Source of the DNA: a virus
Reading direction: 5' to 3' (one strand)
UHGV virus genome: UHGV-1597594
DNA: 61,373 nucleotides
Shown here: positions 1-47,032 of the stretch, piece by piece
Layout of the letters: every line of letters begins with the position of its first letter
Position numbering within the stretch: position 1 is the first letter of the stretch
Notes under the pieces: model-generated
Databases searched by the model: none
What the model saw: only the letters and a program-made list of their open reading frames with translations
What the model was told of the DNA's origin: nothing
Program-made: the position numbers and the translations under genes

Positions 1-132
1 TGATGCAAAGTACGATGTACACAACATGCATTGCATATTTGCAATGATGCAAAGTACGATGTACACAACATGCATTGCATATTTGCAATGATGCAAAGTA
101 CGATGTACACAACATGCATTGCATATTTGCAA
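1..132. repeat. 44-bp tandem direct repeat, 3 identical copies (array may continue upstream of the window)
   Basis: Unit tgatgcaaagtacgatgtacacaacatgcattgcatatttgcaa occurs at 1-44, 45-88 and 89-132; it contains the promoter-like tgtacacaaca box seen elsewhere in the window. Confidence 0.9.
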
Positions 133-166
133 TCATAAAAAGCTCAGCCAATTACGGCTGAGCTTT
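133..166 (-). terminator. intrinsic terminator hairpin downstream of CDS 214-1503
   Basis: Perfect 9-bp stem agctcagcc / ggctgagct (141-149, 156-164) with 6-nt loop; the A-run at 136-140 gives a T-run after the hairpin on the minus-strand transcript. Confidence 0.6.
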
Positions 167-213
167 CATTGAGATGCAACTTTTACGTTGACAGCAAACC
201 TAACTATGTTCGG

Positions 214-1503
214 TTATTCTTTTGGCAGAAGTTCAGCAATGCGTGACTGCAATTGCTCTTTCTGCTTCAAATAGCTGTCAAGAATTTGCTGATGAGCTGC
301 ATAGCCCTTTGATGTCGGGTCCATGCTCTGCATTGTTACTTGAACTGCAGCAATGTCTGATTCAACATTGTTGAGCACTGTCTGATATGCATCAACTTGT
401 GCAGATGCACGAATTGCTGCTTTCATTGCAGTGTCATAATGTTCGCGCCACATTGACTTGATGCATTCGATTTCTGGTGTGCTTACAGAAATTGACTGCA
501 ATGCTGCAATGAGTGCAACAATGCCGCCATATACTGTAATGATACCAGACTGAGTGTCAAGCATGTTGAAGTGATTGCCATCAACTGCGTATACAATGAT
601 AGGCGCAGATTGCAGCTTGACTGAATTGTCGAGAACTGCAAGCTTTGTGAACTGCTGCGTTACTGTAATGACTGCATTGCAAATTGCCTCTGCAGTCTCA
701 AATTCGCCTGCAACTTGCATGCTAACTTGATTGAGTTGCATATAAGTCTTGACTTTCTCAGCGAATTCAAGTGCAGTCATAACTTGCGAATCAAGCTCAA
801 CTGCATCTTGGCCAACAATGCGAACATGGCCGACAATTGTGTCAGCAAAGAATGCTTCAGTCTTTGGACAATACTGAACAAGAGACATCGCATCCATCAA
901 TGCAACAGATTCTGCAGATGGCTCAGATGCTGTAGCATACAGCAAATTGCCATCAGATACAGTGAACCACTTGCCAACTACAGGCAGACCCATGATGTCG
1001 CCTTCAATAATTGCAAGCACATGTGGACAATCACCTGTAGCAATGATGTGTTCAGGATTTGCTGCGTAATAGATGTCTTTTGCCTGCTTGATGAGCGACT
1101 TTACCTCAGGGTACATGTCATAATTGTCAAGCACGCCGTCAACTGCAATTGCTCGAATGATTGGCTCATCAGTTGATGCAACATCTACTGCATCTTCGAT
1201 TGCTGATGCAGCCTTTTGCATATTTGCAGAGCCATCACTCATCAAATCCTCCATGACAAGTGATGCTTTGAAGCCAAAGCCATCTGCGCCTATTGCAGCT
1301 TTTTGTGATTTTGCGAATGCACGTACAGCAGCATCTTTGCTATTTGCAGCGCTTTCCAAAATCATTGCAGCTTTTCGAAGAGTCAGACCAGACTTTTTGA
1401 TTTGTGCAAGTGACTCATTGACAAAGTTTGCACCGCCAAAAGTCAATGCTTTGATGCTTTTGATACCTTGAACAAATGCATCAATGTTTACAGTATGTTT
1501 CAT
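214..1503 (-). CDS. hypothetical protein
   Basis: Long minus-strand ORF; the ORF-track start at 1542 is a TTG, the first ATG (MKHTVNID...) is at 1503, which also removes the overlap with the upstream gene. No motif recognised. Confidence 0.6.
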   Translation of the reverse strand: MKHTVNIDAFVQGIKSIKALTFGGANFVNESLAQIKKSGLTLRKAAMILESAANSKDAAVRAFAKSQKAAIGADGFGFKASLVMEDLMSDGSANMQKAASAIEDAVDVASTDEPIIRAIAVDGVLDNYDMYPEVKSLIKQAKDIYYAANPEHIIATGDCPHVLAIIEGDIMGLPVVGKWFTVSDGNLLYATASEPSAESVALMDAMSLVQYCPKTEAFFADTIVGHVRIVGQDAVELDSQVMTALEFAEKVKTYMQLNQVSMQVAGEFETAEAICNAVITVTQQFTKLAVLDNSVKLQSAPIIVYAVDGNHFNMLDTQSGIITVYGGIVALIAALQSISVSTPEIECIKSMWREHYDTAMKAAIRASAQVDAYQTVLNNVESDIAAVQVTMQSMDPTSKGYAAHQQILDSYLKQKEQLQSRIAELLPKE

Positions 1504-1510
1504 AGTATAC

Positions 1511-3001
1511 TTATGCCTTTTTAGATTTGCGCTTTGCAGCAACTACGACTTCTGCTACGATAGCTTCTACAGTAGCTTCAGTTACAACAGACTTGTCTGC
1601 AACTTTTACAAGAGCTGCATGCAACTTGTAGTTGCCGACTTTGCTGAAAGTGCACATGAATTCTGTTGTTGCGTTGTATTCTGCAGGCACTGCAAAACCG
1701 CTGTCAGGACCCCATACACCAGTGTCTTCAAATGTCCAAGACTGTCCTTGTGAATCTGTTGCAGTAAATGTCGCATGACCATCTTCAGGCGCTTCTACGA
1801 TTTCATACTGCAGCTGAACGCCATCAACGCCAGCCTTGCCAACTACTTCAGTTGCAAGCGTTGCATTGATTGCTACTTCTGTTGCAGGCTGAATGCTTGC
1901 AGGGACATCTACAGAAATCTTGTATTCTGATACTTCAGGCTGAACTGGCTCAGCAACAACTACTGTAGACTCTGCTTCAACAACTACGCTGTCATCAGCA
2001 ACCTTGGCAAGAACTGCATGCAATTTGTACGTGCCAGCCTTGCTAAAGATTACAGTGAACTTTGTAGTTGCATTGTATTCTGCAGGAATGTCAAAGCCTG
2101 TTGCCGGCCCCCAAGTGCCATTGTCGACAAATGTATATTCCTTGCCAGCAGCGTCAGTAGCCTTGAATGTCACATGACCATCTTCAGGTGCTACGTCCAC
2201 GCCATAACGGAACTGAACCTTGTCAACGCCGACGTCGCCAACAGTCTTTGTTTTGAATGTCGCGTCAAGTTCAACTTCAGTGTTTTCGATGATTGTTTCA
2301 GGTGCAGACATTTCGAACTCATACTCAGACACTGTTTGTGCAGCTTGTTCAAGTTTGATGTTCTTTGTCTTGTTTGAAATCATAGTTTCACGACCAGCCT
2401 GGCTAACGTAGCCCTCTTTAGACACTTCCCAAACAATTTCTTCGCCTGACAAAACAGTCAACGAATTGCGAACTTCACCATTCATCTTGACAACTGCATC
2501 TGCAGGTTCTACATTGATTGTCAGTGTAGCTTTGCTGAGCTCAACAAGCTCCACTACTTGAATGACATCATGGTTTGTGAGCGTGATTGTGCCCTCCTGA
2601 GATTCATAACCCTCTTTCGACACTTCCCACTTAATTGGAATGCCTGCAGGCACGTTCTCAAGCATCTTTGTAGCCTCACCATTGATTTCTACGTAAGCAT
2701 CTTCAGGCACAGGCTGAATTGTGATGCTGAACTTATCTTTACCAGGTTCAGGGTCTGGTCCTGGTCCTGGGTCATCACCAGTAATTGCAGGGATAATTGT
2801 CTTTTCGATGACTTTCTGAGCTTCTGCAGTTGTGCCATAGAATTTGAGAGTTTTCTTGGCTTCTTCTACAGACATTTTCTCAAGATTGTCTGCAAGATAT
2901 GTCAGACCAGTGACTGCAGCAATTTTCTGCCGCATTTCTGGGCTAATGACTACACCAGTAGATTTGACCACTGGAGCAGCTTGTTTTTGCTTCTTTGCCA
3001 T
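1511..3001 (-). CDS. repeat-domain protein (Ig-like/PEGA-like repeats), possible virion surface or decoration protein
   Basis: ATG at 3001 (MAKKQKQ). Contains a Pro/Gly/Asp linker (GDDPGPGPDPEPG), two short repeats each containing WEVSKEGY, and two ~105-aa internally duplicated domains (..VAPEDGHVTFKATD..PAEYNATTKF.. / ..EAPEDGHATFTATD..PAEYNATTEF..). Function inferred from architecture only. Confidence 0.6.
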   Translation of the reverse strand: MAKKQKQAAPVVKSTGVVISPEMRQKIAAVTGLTYLADNLEKMSVEEAKKTLKFYGTTAEAQKVIEKTIIPAITGDDPGPGPDPEPGKDKFSITIQPVPEDAYVEINGEATKMLENVPAGIPIKWEVSKEGYESQEGTITLTNHDVIQVVELVELSKATLTINVEPADAVVKMNGEVRNSLTVLSGEEIVWEVSKEGYVSQAGRETMISNKTKNIKLEQAAQTVSEYEFEMSAPETIIENTEVELDATFKTKTVGDVGVDKVQFRYGVDVAPEDGHVTFKATDAAGKEYTFVDNGTWGPATGFDIPAEYNATTKFTVIFSKAGTYKLHAVLAKVADDSVVVEAESTVVVAEPVQPEVSEYKISVDVPASIQPATEVAINATLATEVVGKAGVDGVQLQYEIVEAPEDGHATFTATDSQGQSWTFEDTGVWGPDSGFAVPAEYNATTEFMCTFSKVGNYKLHAALVKVADKSVVTEATVEAIVAEVVVAAKRKSKKA

Positions 3002-3144
3002 AAGATATTGTGAATTTGGTTGTTATTCTTAACAAGATATGTACATACAGATGCAACAGATGATATGTCAGATGCACAAAACTGCATAAAATGACCAGAC
3101 TTGCAAATAAATTTAAGCAAGTCTGGTCATCAGTTTTGATTGCA

Positions 3145-4437
3145 CTACAACAATGACGGCACTCGTTGAGTTTCAAGTGGGTCACTGACATTGATGCCTG
3201 TGTATGCAACAAGTCGTTGTATTGGGCCAAGTACGAGTTTTTCGAACATGAGTCGTTTGTTCATTGGCGGCACATCTGGCATGTACTTCGGTGTCGGCAT
3301 TTCGCCTGGTGCAAAGCCAAATGCATCGCAATATTGACGAGAGCCAATTGGGATATTTGACAAATCTGACTTTGCTCTGTCAACAAAGTAGTAGAATACT
3401 CTACCGCCTTCAATCAATGGATATCGTGTTTCCAATCCATGAGCTTTTACAAGTGCATTATGGTATGCACAAGCCCTGTACTGAGGCAGTACACCTTTTG
3501 CTAACTGCCATTCACCGTCATAGCTTAGCACATAGTCATGATACTTGTTTGCATTGACATATGCGCAAAGTTTTTCCAAGTCTTGCTCAGCTTCAAAGCG
3601 TTTCCATAATTTCTGTATAAGCTTTGGATATGTCGCAGAAGTCAATTCGCCTCTGAACATTTTCTTAAATGCATAGTCAAGCATTTGTCTAACAAGCATT
3701 GATGAGCCTGTTTGAATAAGTTCGATGCCTTTGCCTTGAATGTGCTCAGTAGGGTCTTCGAATACTCGACCATCTACATATATTTGAGCCTTTAAGTACT
3801 TTTTCTTTTGGGCAAATAATGCAGTGTCAGAAATCGTTTCGAGGTCAAATAGCAAAATTGAATTGCCATGACGTTTTGCGAGGTATGCTGCATATGCCCC
3901 ATTGAATAATTCTTCCATACGATATTTGAATATCGCAAGAATCAAGTCATACCAATTTTTGCCTATGTAGCCAATTGATTTGACAGTTGGCTCAAAGTGA
4001 ATGTACAAAGAGTCTGTGTCAATATACAACACCTTGTCTTCATAGGGTTCGTGCTTTGGCGATACAGACAAATCAAAATTGTCCTTCAATTTGGGGTCAT
4101 TGCGCAGTTTTTCATGCAATTCATAATCACACCACCACTTGTTGTTAAGATAGTCATTTGCTACTCGTTCGCCAAAGTGAATGAAGTTACGCCCTTCAGC
4201 AGTAATTGATTCTGCAACTGCCATGTTAAAGAAGTGATAGAATCGATTACTTGTTGCACCATAGATTGAGTTTCGACAACATTTTGCTGAGACTTGCAGT
4301 CCTGCATGTTTTAGTGATTCTTGCATTGCAAAATCTCTCAATTCAAATAGACGTTCAGTAGACAACTGACTCAAATCACCAGTCAAATCTACCCCATCTA
4401 TTTCAATTTTTGACATATCTATCTGAGCTTCTGCCAT
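3145..4437 (-). CDS. family B DNA polymerase, C-terminal fragment (motifs B and C, KKKY motif)
   Basis: ATG at 4437. Translation contains KCCRNSIYG (motif B, KxxxNSxYG), YIDTDSLYI (motif C, YxDTDS) and QKKKYLK (KKRY-type motif). It lacks the exonuclease motifs and motif A, which are in CDS 7798-9303. Confidence 0.85.
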   Translation of the reverse strand: MAEAQIDMSKIEIDGVDLTGDLSQLSTERLFELRDFAMQESLKHAGLQVSAKCCRNSIYGATSNRFYHFFNMAVAESITAEGRNFIHFGERVANDYLNNKWWCDYELHEKLRNDPKLKDNFDLSVSPKHEPYEDKVLYIDTDSLYIHFEPTVKSIGYIGKNWYDLILAIFKYRMEELFNGAYAAYLAKRHGNSILLFDLETISDTALFAQKKKYLKAQIYVDGRVFEDPTEHIQGKGIELIQTGSSMLVRQMLDYAFKKMFRGELTSATYPKLIQKLWKRFEAEQDLEKLCAYVNANKYHDYVLSYDGEWQLAKGVLPQYRACAYHNALVKAHGLETRYPLIEGGRVFYYFVDRAKSDLSNIPIGSRQYCDAFGFAPGEMPTPKYMPDVPPMNKRLMFEKLVLGPIQRLVAYTGINVSDPLETQRVPSLL

Positions 4438-4459
4438 AAGTAGTTTATTTGTTTTGATT

Positions 4460-4617
4460 AAATTGTACTACATACATTGCAATTTTGCAATATGGGTTGT
4501 TAAAATGCACACATTGTACTACATGCAAAATGCTTTTGCATCATTTTGATACAACATGCAAAAACGAATTTGTACCGTTTTGATACAATGAATGCCAAGT
4601 TAAACTTTTGCATGACC
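4460..4617 (-). promoter_or_regulatory. cluster of 3-4 tandem promoter-like motifs upstream of the polymerase C-fragment gene
   Basis: aaattgtactacatacattgcaattttgcaa, acattgtactacatgcaaaatgcttttgcatc, ttttgatacaacatgca and ttttgatacaatgaatgcc...ttttgcat all resemble the recurrent tattgtacaaca-N12-ttgcac motif. Confidence 0.4.
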
Positions 4618-5562
4618 ACAGTCAAATACAGGATAAAATTGCCGTTGTATCATAGTATCTGCGTCAAAATTCTCATCAATGAGATGTTTATGCGTACGCC
4701 AATTATGCCAGTGTTTTTGAATTGTCTGCAAGTTATTTGATTTTTGCGGATTCAATGCAAAGTCTGTTGATAATACAGGTTCATTGTTCAAATGCGCTTG
4801 TATTGCTGCAATAACTGCTTCAACAGACATCCACTCAAATGCAGTCACACAAATAAAACCTGCACGCAATGCATCTTGAGTTTTGTAAAAGTGATATGTT
4901 GGATGAGTTGCTGCGCATTTTGATGCATTTTTGACAAGTGCATCAAAGCTTTTTGCGCTGTTATGCGACACTGTTGGATTGATTTCTACTACGACATTGT
5001 CATATCGCAAATCATACAACTTTAAGTCTATTCTGTAGTCATATTCAAAATTTATGCCAAGACGTTCAAATAGCAATGCATGCCAACGTTCATTAAGTTT
5101 TGACTGTATTTGACCAGATGCTGCTCTGCATTTTGCATGCATGCAAAAATACGGCACATCATATCGCTCTTCACATGTTTGACGCAACTTAGCAATGTTT
5201 GCAGGACCAAGCTTGCCAAAATGCTTAAGCTTAGTTGCATTTGCTTTGTCAGTATTGCTTGGACCTGCTTTGCCAAAATGTTCAAGCTTTGTCGCATTCG
5301 CTTTGTCAGTATTGCCTGGTCCAAGCTTGCCAAAATGTTTAAGCTTAGTCTGCTTGCATTGCTCTGTTACATGTGATAATTGCATATTGTGTTCTACACC
5401 ATATTTTCGTAACATTGCAATTCGCCTAATGTATTTTCTACGAATTTTGCTATGTGATGTCTTTCTTGACGCATATCTCACATATGGCGTACTTGCAATC
5501 AATGCATCTCGCTCGTTTTCAAGTTTAGCAATACGAGCATCAATCTCTTCTTTTGTCATCAT
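4600..5562 (-). CDS. homing-endonuclease-like protein (N-terminal coiled coil, 19-aa tandem repeats, PD-(D/E)xK/Vsr-like C-terminal region); paralog of 53489-54610
   Basis: ATG at 5562. Three repeats of TKL(K/E)HFGK(L/A)GPxNTDKANA; the C-terminal region YDLRYDNVVVEINPTVSHNS resembles the D..hhhE(I)xxxxxH core of Vsr/DUF559-type nucleases. Sits inside the split polymerase gene. Nuclease call is inference. Confidence 0.55.
   Translation of the reverse strand: MMTKEEIDARIAKLENERDALIASTPYVRYASRKTSHSKIRRKYIRRIAMLRKYGVEHNMQLSHVTEQCKQTKLKHFGKLGPGNTDKANATKLEHFGKAGPSNTDKANATKLKHFGKLGPANIAKLRQTCEERYDVPYFCMHAKCRAASGQIQSKLNERWHALLFERLGINFEYDYRIDLKLYDLRYDNVVVEINPTVSHNSAKSFDALVKNASKCAATHPTYHFYKTQDALRAGFICVTAFEWMSVEAVIAAIQAHLNNEPVLSTDFALNPQKSNNLQTIQKHWHNWRTHKHLIDENFDADTMIQRQFYPVFDCGHAKV
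5200..5360. repeat. ~57-bp tandem repeat (about 2.6 copies) inside CDS 4600-5562
   Basis: ccaagcttgccaaaatg(c/t)ttaagcttagt...tttgtcagtattgc(t/c)tgg recurs with a ~57-bp period; it encodes the 19-aa protein repeats. Confidence 0.8.
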
Positions 5563-6473: not shown

Positions 6474-6541
6474 CTTGTATCTATGTTGTTGATTTTCAAT
6501 TTAATATATTGAACAACATTTGTTGACATTTTGCAACATTG

Positions 6542-6916
6542 TCATCGATTGTCGCCTGACCCATGCAATACACCTCGCAATTTTCGAGACTGCAGTTTCT
6601 GAATGTTAAGCTGACAAATGTCAGTTAAGCTGTAGCCCAAATCATGTGCAAGAGTTGCAGCATACCACATGACATCGCTGAGCTCTTTTGCGATTTCATT
6701 GCGAATGTCTTCATTATCAAAATCACCATTCTTGTCTCGAATGACTTTTTTGACTTTGTCTGCAACTTCGCCTGCTTCACCCATTAAGCCAAGTGTTGGA
6801 TAGATAATTGCAGCTGATTTAGGATATACTGCGCTATCAAGCGCAGCAGTCTGATATTCATCAATAGTTGAAATCTGTGTGTGGTCGATTACGCCATGTG
6901 CATCTCGTTTAAGCAT
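6542..6916 (-). CDS. mazG: MazG-like nucleoside triphosphate pyrophosphohydrolase
   Basis: ATG at 6916. 124 aa with LMGEAGEVADKVKK and ELSDVMWY, the two glutamate-rich helices typical of the all-alpha MazG/NTP-PPase family. Confidence 0.75.
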   Translation of the reverse strand: MLKRDAHGVIDHTQISTIDEYQTAALDSAVYPKSAAIIYPTLGLMGEAGEVADKVKKVIRDKNGDFDNEDIRNEIAKELSDVMWYAATLAHDLGYSLTDICQLNIQKLQSRKLRGVLHGSGDNR

Positions 6917-6917
6917 A

Positions 6918-7409
6918 TCATTTACGTTTTTGTTTGACTCTCAATCGTTTTTGCATAAATGCTCTTGTAGCTTCACCAAAAGCCATCTCGTCTCGTTCGC
7001 CACCACAAAGCTTTGCAAGCTTATTGAATGTGTCTTGGTCAATCATTGTGTATGTTGAGTTGTTGACTACATGCAATGCGAACTGAATTAGCGGTGCGCC
7101 AGGCTGCAAGCAAAATGGCTCTTTGCCTGCATTGTACACTGCAAGATGAATCTCGCCATGATAGTCTGAATCTATAAACTCGCTTGTTTTGATAATGAGA
7201 TGATTTCGTGAAATGCCAGACTTATTGTAGGCAATCAATGCATGACCGGCAGGCACAAGTGCTTTAATGCCAGATGGAATTGCAATGCCCTCGCCAGGTT
7301 GCAGCATTGTTTGCACAAAATCATTGGGTATGCAAAAGTCCCATGCACCAGATTCTGCTGTTGACTTAAATGGACTTTCTACATTTCTGCATTTTGCAAA
7401 GAATAACAT
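6918..7409 (-). CDS. dut: dUTPase-family protein (dUTP/dCTP pyrophosphatase-like)
   Basis: ATG at 7409. EFIDSDYHGEI matches dUTPase motif III (IDxDYRGE); weaker matches to motif I (SGAWDF) and II (NKSGISR); motif V is degenerate. Confidence 0.7.
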   Translation of the reverse strand: MLFFAKCRNVESPFKSTAESGAWDFCIPNDFVQTMLQPGEGIAIPSGIKALVPAGHALIAYNKSGISRNHLIIKTSEFIDSDYHGEIHLAVYNAGKEPFCLQPGAPLIQFALHVVNNSTYTMIDQDTFNKLAKLCGGERDEMAFGEATRAFMQKRLRVKQKRK

Positions 7410-7797: not shown

Positions 7798-9303
7798 TTA
7801 CAATTTGATTGCGCCTCTACGAGCAAGCTCTTCTTCAATCAATCGAACATGATTGTTAGCATACCAAAATTGCAATTTTTTGTGATAATTGCGAACGTTG
7901 CCAAGCTGTTCTTGAGTTTCTTTATACATTGAAGGCTCTCTGTTGTCATACAGACAATTGTTGACTGACACAAAGTAATTTGGGTCTGCTTTGTAATGCT
8001 CGATTTCATCAGGATTTGTTAAACGTCTAATAAAGTTGTCTGGTGAAATATTCGCCGAGCGCATACTTGACGGATACAACGAGTTTGCATCAACACAGAC
8101 AACCATACGAGCCCAATGGTTAAATGGTTGCTTAACAAAGCCGCCCTCAAATGAATGTACAACGTTCTCCGGCCCACCTTGAGCACATACAACTTTACCG
8201 CCATATTTGTTGTACAAATATGTCATCATGACGCCCTCAGATTGCTTAACTGGTCCTTGACAGTGATTCATGTCAATATTTGTCATATTTGACAATGACA
8301 TCACATTTGATATCAAGTCAGTTTTTGCAGCAATCATCGCATTGACCATCGTATCGACAGCATTATATGCAATGAATGTGCATGGATGATACAAATACAG
8401 CTCTTTAAGTGTGCAATCATAGGGTAGCTTACCTACACCAAACATGCGATGTGCAATATAGTCAAGTCGCAATGACTCTTTTTGCCACACTGAATAGTCG
8501 TATGTGTCCATGAGCTGCATGTAGTCATCAATGTACTTGTGGTATGGCATACCATTGCCCCAGACAGTTCTGCCAACTGGAGATGCCAATGCCAAATCAA
8601 TATTGTGCATTGCGCATCGATTTTTGACATAGATGTTATCGAAGCCATTGATGTTCCAGCCTGTCAATGCAGGAATGTTTTTGAAGAGCTTAGTCACCCA
8701 AAAATGCAACAATTCATGCTCATTTGCATGTTGAAAGATTTTGACAGTTGGATGTTCTTTCAAATACGCAGCAAAGCAATGTTGACCCATGTACTCTTGA
8801 ATGATGCCATTGACAAACTCAAATGCATCATCCAATGTTGGGTTTTGTTTGCCGCAGCTTTTGCGCAAATCATCATCATTCAACAAGTCAACAGTAGTCT
8901 GAATGACACAATTGCATTGTTCATCGCATGTACTTATTGCGTTGATAGGCATTTCAGCTTTGTCAGGCTTTGGAAAGCCATTGCCAATTTCAGTCTCAAT
9001 ATCGTAAAAGTACAACTTTGGTCTACGATAAGCAAACAATTCAGCTTTGTCAGCTTCAGGCAATTCAAATAAGAATTGCAGCAAGTCAAATTGATTGAAT
9101 CGTTTTGCTGTGACTCGAGTCACTGGCAATTTACGCCAATCTTGAATATCTGCATATTGAGGCTCTACGTGGTCTGATATTTGCCATACTGGAAATTGAT
9201 AAGGCTGTTCACAGACTGGGTATGTTTTGATGTCAATGCCACCTTGCTCATTAACATATGAGACTTCAATGCCATGTGACAAATATGCTACGTCAACAAT
9301 CAT
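7798..9303 (-). CDS. family B DNA polymerase, N-terminal fragment (3'-5' exonuclease domain + polymerase motif A)
   Basis: ATG at 9303. FYDIETE (Exo I), WNINGFD (Exo II), YNAVDTM (Exo III), VCVDANSLYPSS (motif A, DxxSLYPS). The ORF ends about 95 aa after motif A, without motifs B or C. Confidence 0.85.
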   Translation of the reverse strand: MIVDVAYLSHGIEVSYVNEQGGIDIKTYPVCEQPYQFPVWQISDHVEPQYADIQDWRKLPVTRVTAKRFNQFDLLQFLFELPEADKAELFAYRRPKLYFYDIETEIGNGFPKPDKAEMPINAISTCDEQCNCVIQTTVDLLNDDDLRKSCGKQNPTLDDAFEFVNGIIQEYMGQHCFAAYLKEHPTVKIFQHANEHELLHFWVTKLFKNIPALTGWNINGFDNIYVKNRCAMHNIDLALASPVGRTVWGNGMPYHKYIDDYMQLMDTYDYSVWQKESLRLDYIAHRMFGVGKLPYDCTLKELYLYHPCTFIAYNAVDTMVNAMIAAKTDLISNVMSLSNMTNIDMNHCQGPVKQSEGVMMTYLYNKYGGKVVCAQGGPENVVHSFEGGFVKQPFNHWARMVVCVDANSLYPSSMRSANISPDNFIRRLTNPDEIEHYKADPNYFVSVNNCLYDNREPSMYKETQEQLGNVRNYHKKLQFWYANNHVRLIEEELARRGAIKL

Positions 9304-11383: not shown

Positions 11384-11589
11384 CTTATTTATGATTTGAT
11401 GTCTTGTATTTATATTATATGTTGATATTGTACAACGCTAAGTGTCATTTTGCACTGTCGCCACCAATTTTTATTGATGGTGTTGCAAACAATGCAAGCA
11501 AACACCAGCCACTTTTAGTGACTGCACAAGCAACTGCTATTGCAGCAAAGAAGCTTGCATAAATGATTGCTGCAGCAAGCCAACTTGTT

Positions 11590-13007: not shown

Positions 13008-13382
13008 CTATTCGAAATCTGCATCATCTACATTTTCATTAGGGTCATAGATAAGCCATACAAATGCTGCACAGCCAAGTATGAATAAGCCTCCGCCAAT
13101 GATTGTCGTAAAAACCGAACCAATCCAATGCTTCATAATATCACCGAGCGGATTCAATGTTTCATAGCCAATCATAAATGCGACAAATACAACTATTATT
13201 GCTGCTATTGCTTTGTTTGTGGTGTTTCGTTTTATTGTTGCCATTGTAGTAGAGGTTTGTTGTGTTCTGTATATTATGTTCGAATATATGAGGACATATA
13301 TTATATATAGATATATTATACAACAACAACACAATTTTTGCACACTTTTATAAACCAAAATTTCACAAAAATGCAAACACAA
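13008..13382 (-). CDS. small membrane protein (true start probably an internal Met near 13247)
   Basis: Hydrophobic stretches AIAAIIVVFVAFMIGY and IGGGLFILGCAAFVWLIY; the N-terminal 45 aa of the track ORF are low-complexity and overlap the plus-strand gene. Confidence 0.45.
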   Translation of the reverse strand: MCLHFCEILVYKSVQKLCCCCIIYLYIIYVLIYSNIIYRTQQTSTTMATIKRNTTNKAIAAIIVVFVAFMIGYETLNPLGDIMKHWIGSVFTTIIGGGLFILGCAAFVWLIYDPNENVDDADFE

Positions 13383-18581: not shown

Positions 18582-19091
18582 TTAATATGCGCATTGTATG
18601 CGATTAACTATTTCTGTATCGCCATCGCCAAAATACACATTGTGTTTAATGTTGTTTGTTATGTCTGTCAATACAGCTGTGCCATACCAGGTAATTTCTA
18701 CGTAGCGATTTAACGCTTCGTTAAGCAATGCATCGCTAAATTCCCAATTGTAAGCATTGCTAAATCTAAATGTGCAATCTTGAGAATAGCCTGGCACCAA
18801 TGTAATGGGCGCATTTGCAACGCATTTTAATGTGTTGCCTGCGGCAGATGTAAAAACAACTTCAAGTTGTACTTGAATGTTTTGCTTTGACTTATTTGTT
18901 AAACTTTGCACATCAATGTACAAAGATGATGCATTAACTGAAATGTTGTCATCAACTTTGTTATATGTGCAATTGCCAAAGTACATATCGCCATTTATCC
19001 AGCCTTCAGTCGTAATGGCATCTTCAGGCTTTATTACAGAACCCCCCCCCGCGTTTTGCGAACGATAGTGGTCTTGAGTTACACGTGACAT
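18582..19091 (-). CDS. tail-fibre-like protein, paralog B, with in-frame G9 tract near the N-terminus
   Basis: ATG at 19091 (MSRVTQDHYRSQNAGGGSV...); the GGG codons are a run of 9 G on the coding strand. Confidence 0.65.
   Translation of the reverse strand: MSRVTQDHYRSQNAGGGSVIKPEDAITTEGWINGDMYFGNCTYNKVDDNISVNASSLYIDVQSLTNKSKQNIQVQLEVVFTSAAGNTLKCVANAPITLVPGYSQDCTFRFSNAYNWEFSDALLNEALNRYVEITWYGTAVLTDITNNIKHNVYFGDGDTEIVNRIQCAY
19042..19050 (-). repeat. homopolymeric tract, C9 on plus strand = G9 on coding strand
   Basis: accccccccc at 19041-19050, inside codons 15-17 of CDS 18582-19091. Confidence 0.9.
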
Positions 19092-19117: not shown

Positions 19118-19162
19118 TTATCTATCAACTTGTGATTATCTCTATCTATCAACTTATGATTG
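19118..19162. repeat. two 19-bp direct repeats (tatctatcaactt(g/a)tgatt) in the upstream region of the tail-fibre-like gene
   Basis: Copies at 19118-19136 and 19144-19162, in non-coding sequence between 19091 and 19194. Confidence 0.7.
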
Positions 19163-19193
19163 TCTGTCTCTTATCAAAAGCTGCGCCATTGAC

Positions 19194-26819: not shown

Positions 26820-26909
26820 TGTTGTAGAGGTTTTATATTATATATGATTATATAATACAACAGTTGTGCAAATTTTGCACAACTGTTGTCAATAAAATGC
26901 AATTTTTGT

Positions 26910-27968
26910 TTATTGCTTCAAGCCTGTGAACAGTTCATACTTGAATGCCGGCGCTGCTGCGTAATCCTCAAAGTAGAAGTCACCAATGTTGATGCTAGCA
27001 ATAGCGTCATCGACTGCTTTCTTGTAGCCTACGCGTTCAATTGTCTGCTTATCGCATTTACGCCAATATGTGCTGTGCATCATAAGTGTGGGTGATGCAG
27101 CATAGTCTACTGCAAGCTGTTGTTTTGCAGTGTCAATGTGATGTTCATAGATGTGCACATCATTGCCAGTCCAAATGAACTCTCTTGCCACACAGTTAGT
27201 CAATGTTGCAACAATATGTGTAAGCAATGCATATGATGCGATATTGATGGGCACACCAAGACACATGTCACAGCTACGTTGAGTAAGCGCACAGTCAAGC
27301 CACATGCTTGGTACTTGAGCAGAATCAAGGCATTCTGCAGAGCCATCATGCACAAGCATGCTATCATTAGCAATCTGAATTCGTTCTTCAAGAGTCATTG
27401 GCTGACAATTGAACTGAAACAGCATATGACATGGCGGCAATGCCATCTGAGACATTTGCGCAGGATTCCATGCAGACACGACTTTGTAGCGGCCAGTTGG
27501 ATTGATGACAATGTCTTTAATGCAAGTTGCAAGTTGGTCAAATCCACTGTCATTGAAGTTGCGCCACTGATACCCATAGATAGGTCCGCAATCACCATAC
27601 TCAGGCTTGCTGAATTTTGTGTTATGCAGTTCTGTGCACCAAGTTTCAAAGTCGACATCTTCACCTGGATGCAGTTTACGCCAATGACGATATGCATCCT
27701 GATGCCAGAACTTTGTAATGCCAAGCGTGTCAAGCGTTTTTACATTTGTATCACCTGACATAAACCACAGAAGTTCTCCAATGACACCCTTGACAAACAT
27801 TCTCTTAGATGTTAACAGTGGAAAGCCTTTACGCAAATCAAATCGCATTGATTCTACGAACAGTGACTTTGTGCGAGGCATGTTTTCACGAGCAGGCTCC
27901 TTAAATCTGCCATGCTCAATAACATTGTTAAGTACTCTCAAGTACTCAGTGTCGTGTTTGATATTCAT
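26910..27968 (-). CDS. thyA: thymidylate synthase (ThyA family, uracil-type active site)
   Basis: ATG at 27968. ALPPCHMLFQF (catalytic Cys motif) and QRSCDMCLGVPINIASYALLTHIVA, retaining the Asn of PxNIAS that specifies dUMP in ThyA. 352 aa, with a ~40-aa insertion relative to bacterial ThyA. Confidence 0.8.
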   Translation of the reverse strand: MNIKHDTEYLRVLNNVIEHGRFKEPARENMPRTKSLFVESMRFDLRKGFPLLTSKRMFVKGVIGELLWFMSGDTNVKTLDTLGITKFWHQDAYRHWRKLHPGEDVDFETWCTELHNTKFSKPEYGDCGPIYGYQWRNFNDSGFDQLATCIKDIVINPTGRYKVVSAWNPAQMSQMALPPCHMLFQFNCQPMTLEERIQIANDSMLVHDGSAECLDSAQVPSMWLDCALTQRSCDMCLGVPINIASYALLTHIVATLTNCVAREFIWTGNDVHIYEHHIDTAKQQLAVDYAASPTLMMHSTYWRKCDKQTIERVGYKKAVDDAIASINIGDFYFEDYAAAPAFKYELFTGLKQ

Positions 27969-28655: not shown

Positions 28656-30533
28656 TCAAAAGCCTGCAAAGAAATCTGCATCAGCAGCATCTTGCTGCGG
28701 TGTTGACTCTTGTTCAATCACAAATCGACTGTGCAACTTTTGATTATGTTTTATGTATGGCATAATGCGCCGGATTGATTCGTCAATGACAAAAGTTTCA
28801 CACCAGTCATTTGCATGTCGAATGCCTCGACCAACTGACTGCACAAAGCTTTGATAACACTTATTGCGATACCAGCTTTCGTGATTTGCAGCCTTTGTTT
28901 TGACTACGATATCACCAAGTGACTGCCAAGGTAATTTTGCAACAATTTGACATCTACAACGATTGTCTGGTAAGTCAACGCCTTCAGTAATGCTAAAGCC
29001 TACAAGTACGTAGTTAGTGCCATCAGTAAGCATTGCAAGCTTATTTTGTTTGTCTTCAGCATTGACATATGTCAGCATTCTGCGTTTGTGCTTGCTGTTA
29101 TTGATGATATAGTTTGCAATGTCTCGTGTTGATGTATGTATGATGCAATTGCAGTCATGCGTGTCAAGAATGCTGTCAATTTTCTCGACAAGTCGAGGCA
29201 TATTTGCTGCTTTGTTTTTGTAACTCAATGACAATGCAGGTCTGCATAGTACAATGGGTGATTTGCTAAAATCCCAATCAGGCTCCATATAGAATGCCAC
29301 GTAGTTTTTGATGCCATTGAGTGTAGCAAATGTGTCAATATCACCAATTGTCGCTGACATCCACAATTGCGCATGCGTAGCATCACTATGATGCACCAGT
29401 GTATTTGCAAGAAGTTCGTCATTGACACATTTGAATTGCAAGCTGTTTGTTGCAGCATCAAGTACTACAAGCATGTCACCAGGTGATTGTTCAGTTGCAT
29501 CAAGCATTGTAATGATTGAATATGACAACGTATCACAGCTGGCAACAAAGCGAATGAACGCTTTCTCAAATTGACCAAGTTGTTTACCAGAATCCTGAAG
29601 TTCACTTAGCTTTTCATATGCAGTATGCAAAAAGTCTACAAGTTCTGACAACTGCTGTGCAAGCACTCTTGCTTCTGCTCGCATTGTTGCAATGTCATAT
29701 TGTGTTGTTGCAAGCTTAATGACTGCTTTGACTTGTGCAAACACATTGTTGCGAAGTTCTACATATTTGTTCTGATTTTCAAGAGTCATGATACCTGCAA
29801 TCAGTGACTCGGCCTTTGTGCAATTCTGAATGAATCGAGGACCAATTGACGTGTCAAGAAAGCCTGACAAAATGTCATCAATTTTATGACACTCATCGAA
29901 TATCGTCAATTCACGAGGCCCAAATAAGTTTTTGACGCAATTAACTTGTATCAGCCAGTATGCATAGTTAAGCACAGTGCAATTTGCTGCAGCAGCCTTT
30001 TGACGAGTCTGCAAATATGCGCATTTAGGTCCGCATGGCAATGCAAGAGCTTTCTTTGATGACAGACCATCTTGCTGACATTTACCCATGCTGAATGGCA
30101 GCCCATTGACATGACAAATGTAATTGTCTCGACCTTTGAGCATTACACAACTTCTGAATGCTGAAGTAGTTGTGTCTGCTTTAGCATTGTTGTCGTACAA
30201 ATATTGCTGAATGAACTTGTCATACTGGTCTTGCAGCAGTTTATCAGAAGTCAGCACGTATGACTTAAAGAACGTCGCGCAAAACATCGCAACCACAGAT
30301 TTTCCCGTTCCAGTCGCTCCCTGCAATATGACATTTTGCCCATTTGCAATTGCTCGAATAATGTCGATGATTAGATGACGCTGAGTTGCATCAAAACGCG
30401 CTTGGTCCCACTTGCATGTCTTTGATTGCGCAAGATATGCTGAGAATTTATCAATATGTGCTACAATAAGCTCATCAAGTTCTTGCTGAGATTGCTCTTC
30501 TGTCTTGTGTTCTACTGACGTTAGTCTACCCAT
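28656..30533 (-). CDS. DinG/Rad3-like superfamily-2 DNA helicase
   Basis: ATG at 30533. Walker A GATGTGKS, DECH box (LTIFDECHKID), four-Cys cluster between them (C..C..C..C) as in the Fe-S domain of DinG/XPD helicases. Confidence 0.8.
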   Translation of the reverse strand: MGRLTSVEHKTEEQSQQELDELIVAHIDKFSAYLAQSKTCKWDQARFDATQRHLIIDIIRAIANGQNVILQGATGTGKSVVAMFCATFFKSYVLTSDKLLQDQYDKFIQQYLYDNNAKADTTTSAFRSCVMLKGRDNYICHVNGLPFSMGKCQQDGLSSKKALALPCGPKCAYLQTRQKAAAANCTVLNYAYWLIQVNCVKNLFGPRELTIFDECHKIDDILSGFLDTSIGPRFIQNCTKAESLIAGIMTLENQNKYVELRNNVFAQVKAVIKLATTQYDIATMRAEARVLAQQLSELVDFLHTAYEKLSELQDSGKQLGQFEKAFIRFVASCDTLSYSIITMLDATEQSPGDMLVVLDAATNSLQFKCVNDELLANTLVHHSDATHAQLWMSATIGDIDTFATLNGIKNYVAFYMEPDWDFSKSPIVLCRPALSLSYKNKAANMPRLVEKIDSILDTHDCNCIIHTSTRDIANYIINNSKHKRRMLTYVNAEDKQNKLAMLTDGTNYVLVGFSITEGVDLPDNRCRCQIVAKLPWQSLGDIVVKTKAANHESWYRNKCYQSFVQSVGRGIRHANDWCETFVIDESIRRIMPYIKHNQKLHSRFVIEQESTPQQDAADADFFAGF

Positions 30534-30553
30534 TCTAAATGAGATTTAGATTA
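30534..30553 (-). promoter_or_regulatory. palindromic leader element abutting the helicase start codon (second copy at 37459-37477)
   Basis: tctaaatgagatttaga (7-bp arms, 3-nt loop) begins 1-3 nt from the ATG; the same 20-22 nt occur before the SbcCD-like gene. Confidence 0.5.
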
Positions 30554-30648
30554 TTTGTAAAGATATAATACTACAAACAGCACACATTTGCACTTTGACA
30601 TAACTGATTGAGTATCAATCAATTATGAGTTTATAAAAGTTTTTCAAA

Positions 30649-31166: not shown

Positions 31167-32048
31167 CTATCGTTTGAATTTGATGAAGTGTTCAGCATCA
31201 AGGCCCTCGAATACATACGGGTCAAGAGTTTCCCAGAAGTTTGAGTATGTCGTTGTCTTTGCAATGCTTGTTTGCTTTGACAAGTTCATATTTGGGTAGC
31301 CAAGCATTGCATAGTGTCGCTCATATATGTGCATTGACGTCGCATTATGCACATATGCGCCAAGCTTAAGACCAAGTTCATTTGCGACAAGTTCTTGCAA
31401 CAAAGTGAATGCAAACTGGTCGTTACAGAAGCCCCAAATGACATCATTGCTTCGCATGTATGTTGTCAAGTACAGCTTATCACCACGAACATTAAAGACA
31501 AGATTCAATGTGCATGGCATGTCTTTGCCAGTGTAGTTTGCATATTGTGGCTCATAAATGCTAATAACTGCTCGTCTTGTGCATTCATGATTTCGCAAAC
31601 GTTCAATGACATCTGCAATCTGCTTATGCCAAATTGCACCATACTGCGAATTGACATTGACATCATCATCACTGAACTGCTTCCAGCGAGGCAAATAACG
31701 TTCAATGCATTCAACTGCAGGATTGGCTGTCATGTACCATGCAAATTCTGCTGCAGCATTGAGCTTTTTCCATGGTCGTACATCAATCTTGATTTGTCGC
31801 TGTGAAGGGTCCTGAATAACTACAGACACATTCAGCAATTCTTTTGTTCGAGTCACTGTTTGTGCATTGTTGCCCTTTGATTCTACAAACTCACCTCTAC
31901 AATGAAGTTCATACAAAATTGAGCGAAATGCTTCTGTTGCAGTGTTTTCAATGATTGTCGTCTGTTGATAACATAAATTTGACGACAATGATTCAGCATC
32001 ATTGTACTTTATGCTGTCATTGTTATAAGGTGAATTTTTTGTGTGCAT
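31167..32048 (-). CDS. ThyA-family pyrimidine hydroxymethylase-like enzyme (candidate dCMP hydroxymethylase)
   Basis: ATG at 32048. MPCTLNLVF (catalytic Cys region) and YMRSNDVIWGFCNDQFAFTLL align gap-free with ThyA RSCDVFLGLPFNIASYALL; Asp replaces the specificity Asn. Confidence 0.7.
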   Translation of the reverse strand: MHTKNSPYNNDSIKYNDAESLSSNLCYQQTTIIENTATEAFRSILYELHCRGEFVESKGNNAQTVTRTKELLNVSVVIQDPSQRQIKIDVRPWKKLNAAAEFAWYMTANPAVECIERYLPRWKQFSDDDVNVNSQYGAIWHKQIADVIERLRNHECTRRAVISIYEPQYANYTGKDMPCTLNLVFNVRGDKLYLTTYMRSNDVIWGFCNDQFAFTLLQELVANELGLKLGAYVHNATSMHIYERHYAMLGYPNMNLSKQTSIAKTTTYSNFWETLDPYVFEGLDAEHFIKFKR

Positions 32049-33531: not shown

Positions 33532-36500
33532 TTAACAAATTGATGACGTGCCATCAGTATTTGCTACAACTGTCAATGCACTATCAAACTCATCTTGTTG
33601 CAATACATGGTCAACTATGAGTGTTTTGCGAATTGCAGAAAGTTTGGTAAGCAATTGCATCAGCACTTGCTGATAATTGATATTGTTGACATCATGCTCA
33701 GCGCCAACAATCTGCCCATTGCTAAGCTTGCCACTGATTTCATCAATGAGCAAGATGTTGCCAACTTTGTTTAAGCGTTGAGTCAAAATGAGATGCACGA
33801 TTGCAAGACCTGCGAAAGTCCCTTCCATGCCAGACATTTGACTTACGCTTCTAATTGACTTCGAACCCATCAAGTCAATCATCTTCAGCACATTGTTGTC
33901 ATTGATGTCAAAGAACACTCGGTAGTTCAATGAATCCAGCAAATCATTGAGCTGTACATTCAATGATGTTGCAATTGCTGCAAAGACATATGAAACTAAG
34001 CCTCGTTTGCTTGTGCACTGCTTATATGCATTGTACACCAAGTTTGCAATGTTCCACTTTTTAGAAGCTTGCAAATCTTTCTTGAGAGCTTCAATTCGCA
34101 CATTGTTTGCTGACAAGTCTGCTTGCATTGTTGCAATTTCTGCATTGATGCTTAGCAGTTTTGAGTTTGCTTCAGTTTCATGCTGCTTAGCATCATCAAT
34201 GTCGACTTGCAATGCAGCATTTGCTGCAATATGCTGCTGAGTTTGCTGCGCATGTTCAAGTGCAAATGCTGCAGCAGTCTTATCAATCTCAAGTTGTTTA
34301 AGCGCAGACTCATATGTCGCTTTCTTGTCATACTCTATTTGAGCAATTTCAAGTTCAGCATTTATTGCAGCCAGTTCTGATTCTACTGCAGATTTTGATT
34401 GCAATACATCTTGCTTTGCTTGTTCAGCTTTACGTTTGATGTCTGCAAGTTGATTTGTGATATCTGCAATTTGTGTTTTGACTGCTTCGACTTCAAGCAA
34501 TGTTGCTGCAGTAGCTATTGGTTGTGCAATGAATGCGTCTAAGTCTCTTTGCGCATTGACTACAGTTCTCTGCAAATCATTGAGCTTTTCTGCATGCATA
34601 TCATATGCAGCTTTATGTGCTGGATTCAGCGCAGCAATAATTGCATTTGAATCTGTGACATCAATGACTGTTGCTTGCAATTGCTCAATTTCATACTTCA
34701 AATTGCCAATTTTGACAACATTCTCATTGAATTGCTCTGTTTTTTGTGCACATTCTTGACGCAACTTAGCAAGCTCAGTTGACAGCCACAGCTTGTATGC
34801 TTGTCCTGTGCCAGATGTCAAGTCATTTGTACATACAGGGCATTTGTCGTTTTCAAGTTGCTTTTGCTTGTCTATAACATTGTCGATGTTTGTTTTTGCA
34901 GCAGATACTTCTGTTCTAAGCGCATTTTGAACAGTGTTGATGTCTTCAATTTGCTTTTGCAAAGCATCTATTTTTGCCCGAGTGTTTGCATTGTACGACT
35001 TGCCAAGATTTATCAGCACAGAATCAATGTGCTGCTTTGCTGCATCATATGCAAGCTTTGATTCATCAAGCTTTGTTCTGTACAATAACTCTGCATGCGC
35101 AACTTCTTTCTGCACTTTTGCAGATAGCTCATTCTGTTTTGTAAGCAGCTCAGCATATGTATTGTGCAGCTGTGAGCCAGATGCTATGACATTTGTGTAT
35201 GCTGCATTAGCTTCATTGTCAATATTAGTGAGTTGTTGCTCAATCTGCGCTTTTACTGTTTGCAATTTAGACATGTCTTGCAATGCAAGTGCAGCAATGT
35301 CAAGCTCAACTTTGCGAATCTTTGCAACGATGCTATCGATATTTGCTGTTGCATCTTCTACAGTTAAAATATCTGCAGAAATTTGATGCAGTCTTTTTGA
35401 GAGCTCTTCTACTTTTGCACGTGCTTTTGTAAGTTTTGCAGACCACTCTTTTTGATTATCTTGTCGTAACTGCAAAGAGTCATTGAGTTCATTGCAAGTT
35501 GTATTGAGAGACTCAAGTTCTGCTTTTATTGCGACATCAGTCAACGCAGGTTTGCTAAGACCATCAAACAATGCAGCTTTTGCAGCATCATTAGAATTGC
35601 CGAGCTGCACAAATGTATTGATGCCAAGAGTATCAAGCAACCAGTCATTCAATGAATTTGAGTCCATTGCAATGATTTGGTCAAGCAATGTCTGATTGAT
35701 GCATACATATCGCGACAATTCCCATATAGAGCCAAAGATTGCATATAGTGTGTCTTTGATTTCATGCTGCGGCACTGCATAGTCATCTGACAATCGCACA
35801 AGTTGCACAGTCTCATTAACTGTTGACACATTGTCTCGCCATGAGCCATCTGCATTTATTCGAGAACCTCGTTTGAATTTGCGCTCAAGTGTTCGAGTCA
35901 ATTTGTAATGCACATTTTGACCCGCAACTACATGCACAAACACACAAGAAGCTTCAAGCTTGTCATATGACTCATTGTCAATCAACTTGTCATTGAAGTA
36001 CGTCAAAGCATTCTGCTTTGTTGCTGCAGAAGACTGTCCAGCGTCAATGAAGCCAGTCAATAGCCATTTAATAAGCCTAAAGATTGTTGTCTTGCCATTG
36101 CCATTGTTGCCTCTAACTTGTGTAAGTTGCGCAAGATTGTCAAAGCTAACATCAACATCTTTCAATGCCATGAACTGATTTGCTTTAACATTTTGAATGA
36201 CATATTTTGCAACTTCAGTGTCAAAAGACAATTTATCAATTTGTTCATCAATCAATGACTTGAACATGTCAACAAACTGCTGAGCGTCTTCAGTAGCAAC
36301 TATAGCATTGCGTTCAATGTACGCATTGACCCAGTCAAGTGCAGCATCTTTAAGCCATTCAGCAGTTTGAACTTTTTGCAGCAAATTGTCGCCATTTGCA
36401 TCTACAGCATTGATTGAATCAATGACAGCAGAATCATACAGAATGTCAATTGCGGCAACAACGTATGAACTTACAAGATTCTGTGCAATGCGCTCAACAA

Positions 36501-37458: not shown

Positions 37459-37480
37459 ATTCTAAATGAGATTTAGATTA

Positions 37481-37550
37481 TATGTTGATATTGTACAACA
37501 TGCAAAATGCACTTGCATTTTGATGCAAAGTACAGTGTACACAACATGCA
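37481..37550 (-). promoter_or_regulatory. two tandem promoter-like motifs upstream of the SbcCD-like gene; the second is a diverged copy of the 44-bp repeat unit at 1-132
   Basis: tatatgttgatattgtacaacatgcaaaatgcac and tgatgcaaagtacagtgtacacaacatgca (28/30 identical to positions 1-30 of the repeat unit). Confidence 0.45.
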
Positions 37551-37555
37551 AAATG

Positions 37556-37903
37556 TCATTTTGCAAGCATTTTGCTGATTGCATCTATCACAGTTTCACT
37601 GAGCAAGTAGTAGACAACGCTTATCAGCAATGATATCAGTACTGCAGCTGTGATAAATTGCAACGCATTCATAATTGCACGCACAAATGTTATTTGCGTG
37701 TTGTATGCAAGCACTATGCAGCATAACATAATGATGATACACCACACTACAATTGCATATGCAGGCAGCAATGAATTTGTCCATATGCAGTACAATGCAG
37801 TAGTTAGCATCAAAAATGCTATTGCTCTGATGACTGACACAATGATGTCTATGTAGGGCTTCATTGCACGTAAATGAACTCTTGGCTTATGCGGTTTCAT
37901 CAT
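37556..37903 (-). CDS. small membrane protein
   Basis: 115-aa ORF, mostly hydrophobic. Confidence 0.5.
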   Translation of the reverse strand: MMKPHKPRVHLRAMKPYIDIIVSVIRAIAFLMLTTALYCIWTNSLLPAYAIVVWCIIIMLCCIVLAYNTQITFVRAIMNALQFITAAVLISLLISVVYYLLSETVIDAISKMLAK

Positions 37904-46945: not shown

Positions 46946-47032
46946 ATTGTTTTATCATATATGAATATATTGTACAACATAAAGCGCATACTTGCACTTT
47001 GTGTTGCTAAAAATATCGTCATTGTACACAAA

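Follow-up and report, generated by a model that had tools for sequence, protein, structure and literature searches.

A strain-variable tandem array of promoter-like 44-bp units upstream of a probable late sigma factor gene in a distantly T4-like gut phage

The viral DNA examined here (UHGV virus genome UHGV-1597594; 61,373 nucleotides, hereafter the window) begins inside a tandem repeat, and the question that this locus raises is whether the repeated units are stacked promoters or operators, as an earlier note made from the letters alone had proposed, or the product of some other process acting on the spacer in front of a gene. Positions 1-133 hold an array with a period of 44, 3.0 copies, 100% matches and 0 indels (TRF), such that the three exact 44-bp copies described earlier are borne out, with the count to be read as a lower bound. 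The 30-mer TGATGCAAAGTACGATGTACACAACATGCA was found by pattern search exactly at 1, 45 and 89 and with 2 mismatches at 37521-37550, while none of 100 dinucleotide-preserving shuffles contained a match to it. Since nearly all genes of the window lie on the minus strand (68 of 71 in a greedy ORF call), the array unit is to be read as its reverse complement, TTGCAAATATGCAATGCATGTTGTGTACATCGTACTTTGCATCA, and the individual units, which we call U, occupy 132-89, 88-45 and 44-1 on that strand; the array was delimited by TRF and pattern search as well as by repeat families D1, D6 and D12 and by decomposition with a position weight matrix (PWM). The array starts, on the minus strand, 4 nt after the intrinsic terminator of gene 214-1503 (AAAGCTCAGCC-GTAATT-GGCTGAGCTTT then TTATGA, at about 136-166), a hairpin with a 13-bp stem (RNA fold, hairpin finder) and a T-tail that is kept in relatives, and the earlier statement that the repeats follow this terminator is thus correct. 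Gene 214-1503 itself (minus strand, 5' of the array) encodes a 429-aa protein with no function assigned. There was no Rfam match at gathering thresholds and no tRNA (ARAGORN) anywhere in the window, and a structured RNA or tRNA-derived repeat was set aside on these grounds.

Extension of the sequence beyond position 1, which the earlier note had suggested, was possible with the ENA scaffold of the window's sample, and it revealed more U across a gap: the terminator is followed by 2.2 U units, 100 N, the end of 1 more U, two intact promoters that we call P (itself a partial unit) and C, and the ATG of a gene encoding a 162-aa protein. The array is intergenic, lies between the terminator and this gene, and shares its orientation on the minus strand. 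The 162-aa protein matched PHROG 234 ‘late sigma transcription factor’ (E = 1.2e-8) and, weakly, the sigma-70 family TIGR02937 (NCBIfam, E = 0.011), and its homologue in phage MA9V-2 carries the annotation ‘sigma-70 region 2’, while a PDB sequence search with it returned noise only. Given the PDB noise and the weak NCBIfam match, the label depends mainly on PHROG 234, and we call the protein gp55-like, a probable late sigma factor, with moderate confidence. The gene order PolB, 429-aa gene, gp55-like gene is syntenic with that of Chryseobacterium phage MA9V-1, where 29 bp separate the homologues of the latter two, and 3' of the gp55-like gene lies a DUF7487 endonuclease-like gene whose presence is strain-variable and uncorrelated with U. 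Gene callers sometimes stretch the gp55-like ORF through U, P and C (to 219 aa in strains L011, L014 and L028), a coding reading that we rejected because 44 cannot be divided by 3, the extension is missing from other alleles, and the MA9V homologues align inside the 162 aa, which start MPLQ and to which the alignments begin at query residue 9 (MA9V-1) or 26 (MA9V-2).

Judged from its proteins, the phage is a distant relative of T4: it encodes a T4-type portal (Pfam Portal_T4, E = 2e-59), a split family-B DNA polymerase, and proteins that resemble gp32 and gp2. Among cultured phages, the closest to it are Chryseobacterium phages MA9V-1 and MA9V-2, Sphingomonas phage PAU, Tenacibaculum phage PTm1 and the Lak phages, and two near-identical genomes of ~175 kb are present in IMG/VR (IMGVR_UViG_3300045988_149023 and _152288). 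A Shine-Dalgarno-like motif precedes only 3 of 71 genes, and this scarcity together with the cultured relatives suggests a host among the Bacteroidota. Metagenomes of the human gut are the likely source, to go by the record names (ZEEV15, COST17). Searches for the locus elsewhere gave little: megablast of window positions 1-4500 against GenBank phages found no match, scans of JGI metagenomes for a terminator 22-mer and a U core 30-mer likewise found none, and IMG/VR scans for U recovered one contig only, bearing a single unit.

To place U among other sequences of the window, we evaluated a dispersed sigma-70-like promoter family whose consensus is (G/A/T)TGCAA-N12-TGT(T/A)G-TA(C/T)(A/T)AT-N5-CATATA(A/T). 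The regular expression nTGCAA-N16-18-TAYnAW matched the window 23 times on the minus strand and 6 times on the plus strand, with the matches that combine a 17-nt spacer with TGTWG before the second hexamer falling exclusively on the minus strand. A PWM trained on 11 intergenic matches of the fixed-N17 expression, and over-fitted in its downstream part, gave 15 matches of at least 12 bits on the minus strand (13 of them intergenic) and 0 on the plus strand; the scores of the 11 seed sites are circular, and 4 of the 15 matches were not seeds. Independently of the PWM, a repeat finder aligned the array units with promoter sites in the same register (family D1), and the promoter sites were covered by dispersed repeat families D1, D3, D5 and D8. 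Family sites lie mostly 23-70 nt 5' of start codons and serve genes for gp32-like, two helicase, Mre11-Rad50-like, PolB polymerase-domain, gp55-like and other prereplicative proteins, with 0 PWM sites in the stretch of structural genes at ~13.7-26.8 kb (baseplate, adaptor-like proteins) and 0 in the 9-kb run of structural genes that lies past the gp55-like gene. Prereplicative (early or middle) promoters would be expected to be distributed in this way, which to that extent agrees with the earlier suggestion of an early promoter region.

The individual sites, all on the minus strand, vary chiefly in the second hexamer. Two intact promoters precede the PolB polymerase-domain ORF (4541-4513 and 4490-4462), with a P-type copy, TGTTGTATCAAAATGATGCAA, just upstream of them near 4560. 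GTGCAA-N17-TACAAT recurs at 11427-11455, at 41285-41313, at 46969-46997 (~45 nt 3' of a terminator-like hairpin) and in the strand-switch region at 59257-59285; GTGCAA-N17-TATAAT is found at 13315-13343; and GTGCAA-N17-TATTAT is found at 26852-26880 and, 5' of the helicase gene 28656-30533, at 30565-30593. GTGCAA-N17-TATCAT (53460-53488) stands 5' of the gp32-like gene 52207-53337, and an intact ATGCAA-N17-TACAAT (37490-37518) stands 31 nt 5' of the ATG of the Mre11-Rad50-like gene 33532-37458. Further members are GTGCAA-N17-TACATT at 50497-50525 and a weaker one, TTGCAA-N17-TTCAAT, at 6508-6536. The T4 late-promoter box TATAAATA had 2 matches against 1.8 expected, and a candidate late box, TGTACATAT, had 38 against 30 expected, which is not significant. 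The primary sigma factor of Bacteroidota uses motifs that differ from those of this family, and the Bacteroidota -7 motif TAnnTTTG was enriched neither in intergenic sequence nor on the gene strand. An E. coli-consensus promoter scan of positions 1-5000 gave fewer matches than shuffles and did not flag the U units as promoters; the same scan reported the small hairpins of U as ‘terminator-like’.

Measured against this family, U carries the upstream half of a promoter. On the minus strand each unit carries a -35-like TTGCAA (132-127, 88-83 and 44-39) and a 17-nt spacer ending TGTTG (ATATGCAATGCATGTTG), both of which agree with the family, and this upstream half (the first 29 nt: -35, spacer and TGTTG) scores 25.7 bits, level with the best intact members; in the window 9 positions reach at least this score, namely 7 intact promoters and 2 array units. 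The place of the -10 element is occupied by TGTACATCGTACTTTGCATCA, with a sub-score of -7.6 bits versus +9.4 for intact members (TACAAT). At the N17 spacing the hexamer is TGTACA, with neither A at position 2 nor T at position 6 and hence outside the family's TAYWAT, and at a 19-nt spacing it is TACATC, without the final T. The tgtacacaaca that the earlier note had taken for a box was read from the wrong strand, as it is the reverse complement of TGTTG plus the place of the -10 hexamer. Full PWM scores were 8.9 bits for U, 19.6 for P (TTGCAA-N17-TATCAA) and 34.4 for C (GTGCAA-N17-TACAAT, 28 nt before the ATG of the gp55-like gene), where P and C, being beyond position 1 and outside the window, were left out of the training set. 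U and P are identical over their first 24 nt and lie 44 bp apart, and relative to P-type copies, in which TGTTGT is followed by ATCAAAATG, U has 16 extra nt, GTACAyyGTACTTTGC. On these scores the U units are the least promoter-like part of the gp55-like spacer, and they most likely have no working -10 element, a judgement made against the family consensus and with the host holoenzyme's -10 recognition rules assumed. Weak promoter activity of U may nevertheless exist, as U contains TACTTT and TACTTT occupies the -10 position at the orthologous promoter of a relative (L020, below).

Comparison of strains whose 429-aa proteins are at least 97% identical revealed four forms of the spacer. Form A has the terminator and one TTGCAA-N17-TACAAT promoter (L003, L017-19); form B has the terminator and one U followed by P and C (L002, L011-14, L021-22 and L028, standing also for ~20 further similar places); form C is the expanded array, seen in the window's sample only among the matches listed; and form D has another terminator, a poly-T of 5, 10 or 12 T and GTGCAA-N17-TATAAA (L023-32). 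All four retain a terminator, at least one promoter and then the leader AGGAATTTTAATGCTCACTG(C/T)TATG, and in most sampled strains U is kept as a single copy. In L020, a relative at 61% identity, there is yet another terminator and the promoter is TTGCAT-N17-TACTTT, with TGTAG-TACTTT at the orthologous -10 position. Because close strains, with flanking proteins at least 97% identical, have no U or another cassette altogether, U is by this comparison dispensable, as is P; and because close relatives have either no unit or one, the array cannot be a strong promoter region that the phage needs, even if the family to which its upstream half belongs fits the early or middle class. Two further observations, namely an identical T-to-C change in U and also in P of L021 and L022 and a 6-nt slippage deletion in P of L012, point to ongoing exchange between the U and P repeats.

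The window holds U a second time. The diverged copy that had been noticed upstream of the SbcCD-like gene is indeed present, with 28 of 30 core positions identical at 37521-37550, and it extends to a whole U-type unit, TTGCAAAATGACATTTTGCATGTTGTGTACACTGTACTTTGCATCA (37521-37566, minus strand), whose spacer is 2 nt longer than that of the array units, whose -35-like TTGCAA overlaps the end of ORF 37556-37903, and which lies directly 5' of the intact promoter at 37490-37518. Three alleles were seen at this locus: a single promoter (genome 152288), P+C (149023), and U+C (the window and ERR1999775). As the U+C allele also occurs in ERR1999775, an independent sample, it is not an assembly chimera, and as the U core in genome 149023 is confined to the gp55-like locus, the second U of the window's strain looks like an ectopic transfer between cassettes.

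Taken together, we regard it as reasonably probable that the array is a strain-specific, variable-number amplification of a promoter-derived unit, that it arose by recombination or slippage, and that P and C, rather than the inactive or weak U, drive the gp55-like gene. The mechanism we infer is one in which unequal homologous recombination or replication slippage, which T4-type phages carry out efficiently, would add or remove whole units across the 24-nt identity of U and P; once two U exist, the available homology would increase to at least 44 nt and the array could extend through U-U identity. T4-type recombination is known to manage with short patches of homology (PMC2839356). Ectopic recombination between promoter cassettes would have placed the 37.5-kb U upstream of the Mre11-Rad50-like gene. 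The gp55-like gene would be transcribed from P and C. The U units themselves probably have little or no promoter activity and would at most serve as RNA-polymerase docking sites that modulate this gene. Against this reading, the retention of U as a single copy in most sampled strains and the presence of its core at a second locus could reflect function rather than recent copying.

We consider the original proposal of stacked promoters unlikely, also when it is corrected for strand and each U is taken to fire (from ATGCAA-N18-TACTTT or by means of a phage-modified holoenzyme), such that amplification would raise transcription of the gp55-like gene. Part of it stands: the -35, spacer and TGTTG of U are first-rate, promoters of this family are stacked (as P and C) in front of the gp55-like gene and at other loci, and TACTTT, which follows a second ATGCAA box by 18 nt, has the T, A and T that matter most in a -10 element and equals the -10 of L020. 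What does not stand is the -10 element of U itself, given TGTACA at the invariant 17-nt spacing, while the N18/TACTTT register scores below zero on the family PWM and has no TGTWG. Against firing from each unit also count the 37.5-kb U, which has no -35 at 17-18 nt from its TACTTT, and the strains that have no U at all.

An array of regulator sites, with a dimer binding TTGCA-N4-TGCAA or CATTGCA-N4-TGCAATG, or a factor binding TGTACAyyGTAC, and so repressing, activating or titrating control of the late-sigma and Mre11-Rad50-like genes, is in our estimation quite improbable. It would account for the 7-bp-arm inverted repeat over the -35 box of every U and for the conservation of TGTACAyyGTACTTTGCATCA at 2 loci before two functionally linked genes. 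The ttgca/tgcaa palindromes that had been read as operators are, however, not specific to regulatory regions by genome-wide counts, and we rejected that reading: TGCA is over-represented 5.2-fold across the window and exceeds a codon-preserving null in coding sequence (1055 versus 681 ± 17 in a synonymous-codon shuffle), 5 of the 6 TTGCA-N4-TGCAA sites outside the array lie within coding sequence, and a second TGCA near the -35 box occurs, by eye, in only about 3-4 of 13 intact promoters. The 21-nt element is likewise confined to two loci, and close relatives lack it. A related reading treats the half of U outside the promoter motif (TGTACAyyGTACTTTGCATCA) as a regulatory module in its own right, which would couple the late-sigma gene to the Mre11-Rad50-like gene and make copy number a dial; we rate it as a long shot of about the same order.

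Next to these biological readings stands the concern that an assembler, as the earlier note had already raised, or a strain mixture made the tandem copies, which we hold to be highly improbable. The exact 429-aa protein was found only in contigs of ERR1136811 / SAMEA3664609; the array sits at a contig end, and its copy number differs by assembly of this one run (3.0 in the window; 2.2 plus a gap plus 1 in the ENA scaffold; truncated in the Logan contig). The window edge is an assembly break, and because the window starts inside the array and the assembler sets the count, 3 copies are a minimum. Yet the three assemblies break at one place, and breaks are what genuine unresolved repeats yield. 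The Logan contig, a 31-mer assembly, terminates in GATTGCAAATATGCAATGCATGTTGTGTACA, the last 31-mer with a flank-specific base, and this is precisely where 2 or more U in a row would create an in-branch node, as the de Bruijn graph gains a second incoming edge there if tandem U are present (U-U junction sequence GTACTTTGCATCATTGCAAATATGCAATGCATGTTGTGTACA). Scaffolding joins both sides across the 100-N gap, and in other samples the single-U allele was assembled cleanly, with ENA scaffolds and Logan contigs passing through without a break. Since the same assembly sources traverse the single-U allele elsewhere, a real tandem repeat is much more likely than an artefact. Least credible of all is a replication origin, iteron-type or promoter-dependent (compare the T4 oriE iterons and the R-loop origins oriF/oriG), which direct repeats in a non-coding spacer with adjoining promoters in a T4-like phage would allow, but which has against it close relatives with no repeats or one copy, a cumulative GC skew without inflection across the locus, and the lack of an AT-rich unwinding stretch and of an adjacent initiator gene.

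The closest described concept for the amplified promoter cassette is that of the PeSL cassettes of T4-type phages, in which an early promoter is combined with a stem-loop and recombination produces indels between close relatives (Arbiol et al. 2010, PMC2839356; Comeau et al. 2014, PMC4122927). By analogy, the locus would work like a PeSL-type regulatory cassette, although we do not class it as a PeSL. The likeness lies in a sigma-70-like promoter family repeated in intergenic spacers (15 minus-strand sites in 61 kb), a terminator hairpin directly 5' of the promoter at the gp55-like locus, end points of indels or replacements inside cassettes (4 alleles at the gp55-like locus, 3 at 37.5 kb), and cassettes that appear to act as homology patches for recombination. 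The differences are that an adjacent stem-loop accompanies only about 2-3 of 14 promoter sites (strict hairpin finder plus inspection by eye), that there is no poly-G/poly-C stem, that a promoter fragment is amplified in tandem here rather than ORFans being gained or lost, and that this phage is only distantly T4-like. As for the strong-promoter criterion of PeSLs, P and C fit the family consensus and U, without a -10, does not, as far as can be read from sequence alone.

Among T4 promoter classes, the early promoters have conserved blocks beyond -35 and -10 (Hinton 2010, PMC2988021), and our family resembles them in its -35/-10 geometry with a 17-nt spacer, its extra blocks TGTWG and CATATAW and its prereplicative genes, while differing in its hexamers (nTGCAA and TAYWAT), in having array units without a -10, in that no obvious A/T-rich UP element was noticed, and in a probable host that is Bacteroidota-like and without Shine-Dalgarno use. 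The middle (MotA/AsiA) promoters offer a partial likeness, namely a TGC-containing box 5' of a sigma-70-type -10, at genes for replication and recombination. MotA boxes have their centre at -30, 11-13 nt away from the -10 (PMC2988021), whereas the box here is at -35 with a strict 17-nt spacer, and we rejected a MotA-type assignment of the family for this reason. T4 middle promoters also serve the run-up to late transcription in T4.

Exact head-to-tail copies whose number differs between near-identical genomes are characteristic of variable-number tandem repeats and contingency loci in promoter regions. The array resembles these in lying upstream of a regulatory gene with a strain-variable copy number, and differs in its long 44-bp period and in a repeat that appears to derive from two pre-existing promoter copies.

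To summarize its biology, the array is an ordinary phage promoter-cassette polymorphism and not a new kind of element. It adds to the instances in which promoter cassettes serve as recombination substrates and in which tandem repeats break metagenome assemblies, and it explains why the contigs of this phage end here. For an uncultured, distantly T4-like gut phage of ~175 kb, the analysis defines the prereplicative consensus nTGCAA-N17-TGTWG-TAYWAT-N5-CATATAW, which is unlike the usual Bacteroidota motif and so raises the question of which holoenzyme reads it. Should the non-promoter half of U be a regulatory module after all, it might bind a factor of the phage or the host, or act as promoter for an alternative holoenzyme, and U copy number would be a heritable ‘contingency locus’ dial for the timing or strength of the late switch. 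The spacer 5' of the gp55-like gene is in any case a hyper-variable site, useful in strain typing and in experiments that ask whether promoter fragments lying upstream adjust late-sigma expression.

Evaluating tetranucleotide content on both strands of the whole window, we found that GATC and CTAG were each represented only 8 times (vs ~444 expected), whereas TGCA occurred 2290 times against an expected 444, a 5.2-fold excess. Within coding sequence TGCA was counted 1055 times, compared with 681 ± 17 under a null in which synonymous codons were shuffled, and its density between genes was as high as in coding sequence, so that codon usage alone does not account for the excess. The window also carries a gene cluster resembling a pathway for DNA hypermodification (26910-27968, 31167-32048, 44827-45552, 6542-7409, 37900-40295 and 42133-43689). 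Among its members are a thymidylate synthase and another, more divergent protein of ThyA type, the latter possibly a pyrimidine hydroxymethylase, alongside a dCMP deaminase, a dUTPase, MazG and glycosyltransferases (one beta-glucosyltransferase-like protein and two GT47-like).

Comparison of related strains from other samples revealed two further forms of variation around the gp55-like gene, which probably encodes the late sigma factor. In loci carrying the promoter allele that we termed D (L023-L032), the poly-T tract between terminator and promoter comprises 5, 10 or 12 T depending on the sample, so that the spacer following the 429-aa gene (214-1503, minus strand) varies in length in a second way. 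Directly 3' of the gp55-like gene, the presence of a DUF7487 endonuclease-like gene (316-418 aa) varies among otherwise near-identical strains (L002, L006, L017 and L031 contrasted with L011, L021, L023 and L029) and is independent of the promoter allele.

Other repeats were identified within the window and toward its far end. Upstream of gene 18582-19091, the spacer contains 2.4 tandem copies of a 24-nt unit (19119-19177; minus-strand sequence …ATCA(T/C)AAGTTGATAGATA…), and because no copy of the dispersed, sigma-70-like family promoter is found in that spacer, we interpret it as what may be a separate regulatory repeat. At the far end, a block of small plus-strand genes has G homopolymers in its spacers (7 G at 59384-59390 and 10 G at 60751-60760). 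Two paralogous plus-strand genes with similar N-termini are also present, 60870-61277 and 61357-61373, of which the latter is truncated where the window stops. Given these G runs and paralogs, the contig may have been broken by repeats at this end as well.

Turning to replication and recombination proteins, we found that separate ORFs encode the exonuclease and polymerase domains of the family-B DNA polymerase; these ORFs together occupy 3145-4437 and 7798-9303 and are separated by ~3.4 kb holding 5 genes. One of these is a DUF7487 endonuclease-like gene (4600-5562) with an internal 57-nt tandem repeat (5204-5350; 2.6 copies of 19 codons, 83% identity). Three copies of the promoter family directly precede the polymerase-domain ORF. 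A single ORF at 33532-37458 encodes 1308 aa in which an Mre11/SbcD-type phosphoesterase at the N-terminus is joined to an AAA domain of Rad50/SbcC type, a fusion of what in T4 are the separate proteins gp47 and gp46.

This Mre11-Rad50-like gene (leader at 37459-37485) and the helicase gene (leader at 30534-30560) have in common the leader ATAATCTAAATCTCATTTAGA(AT)ATG, while a different leader, AAA(C/T)CTCTAC(A/T)ACA-ATG, stands before 3 small genes (leaders at 13245-13260, 26820-26835 and 59218-59233). That the promoters are accompanied by such shared leaders shows that complete promoter-plus-leader cassettes are reused.
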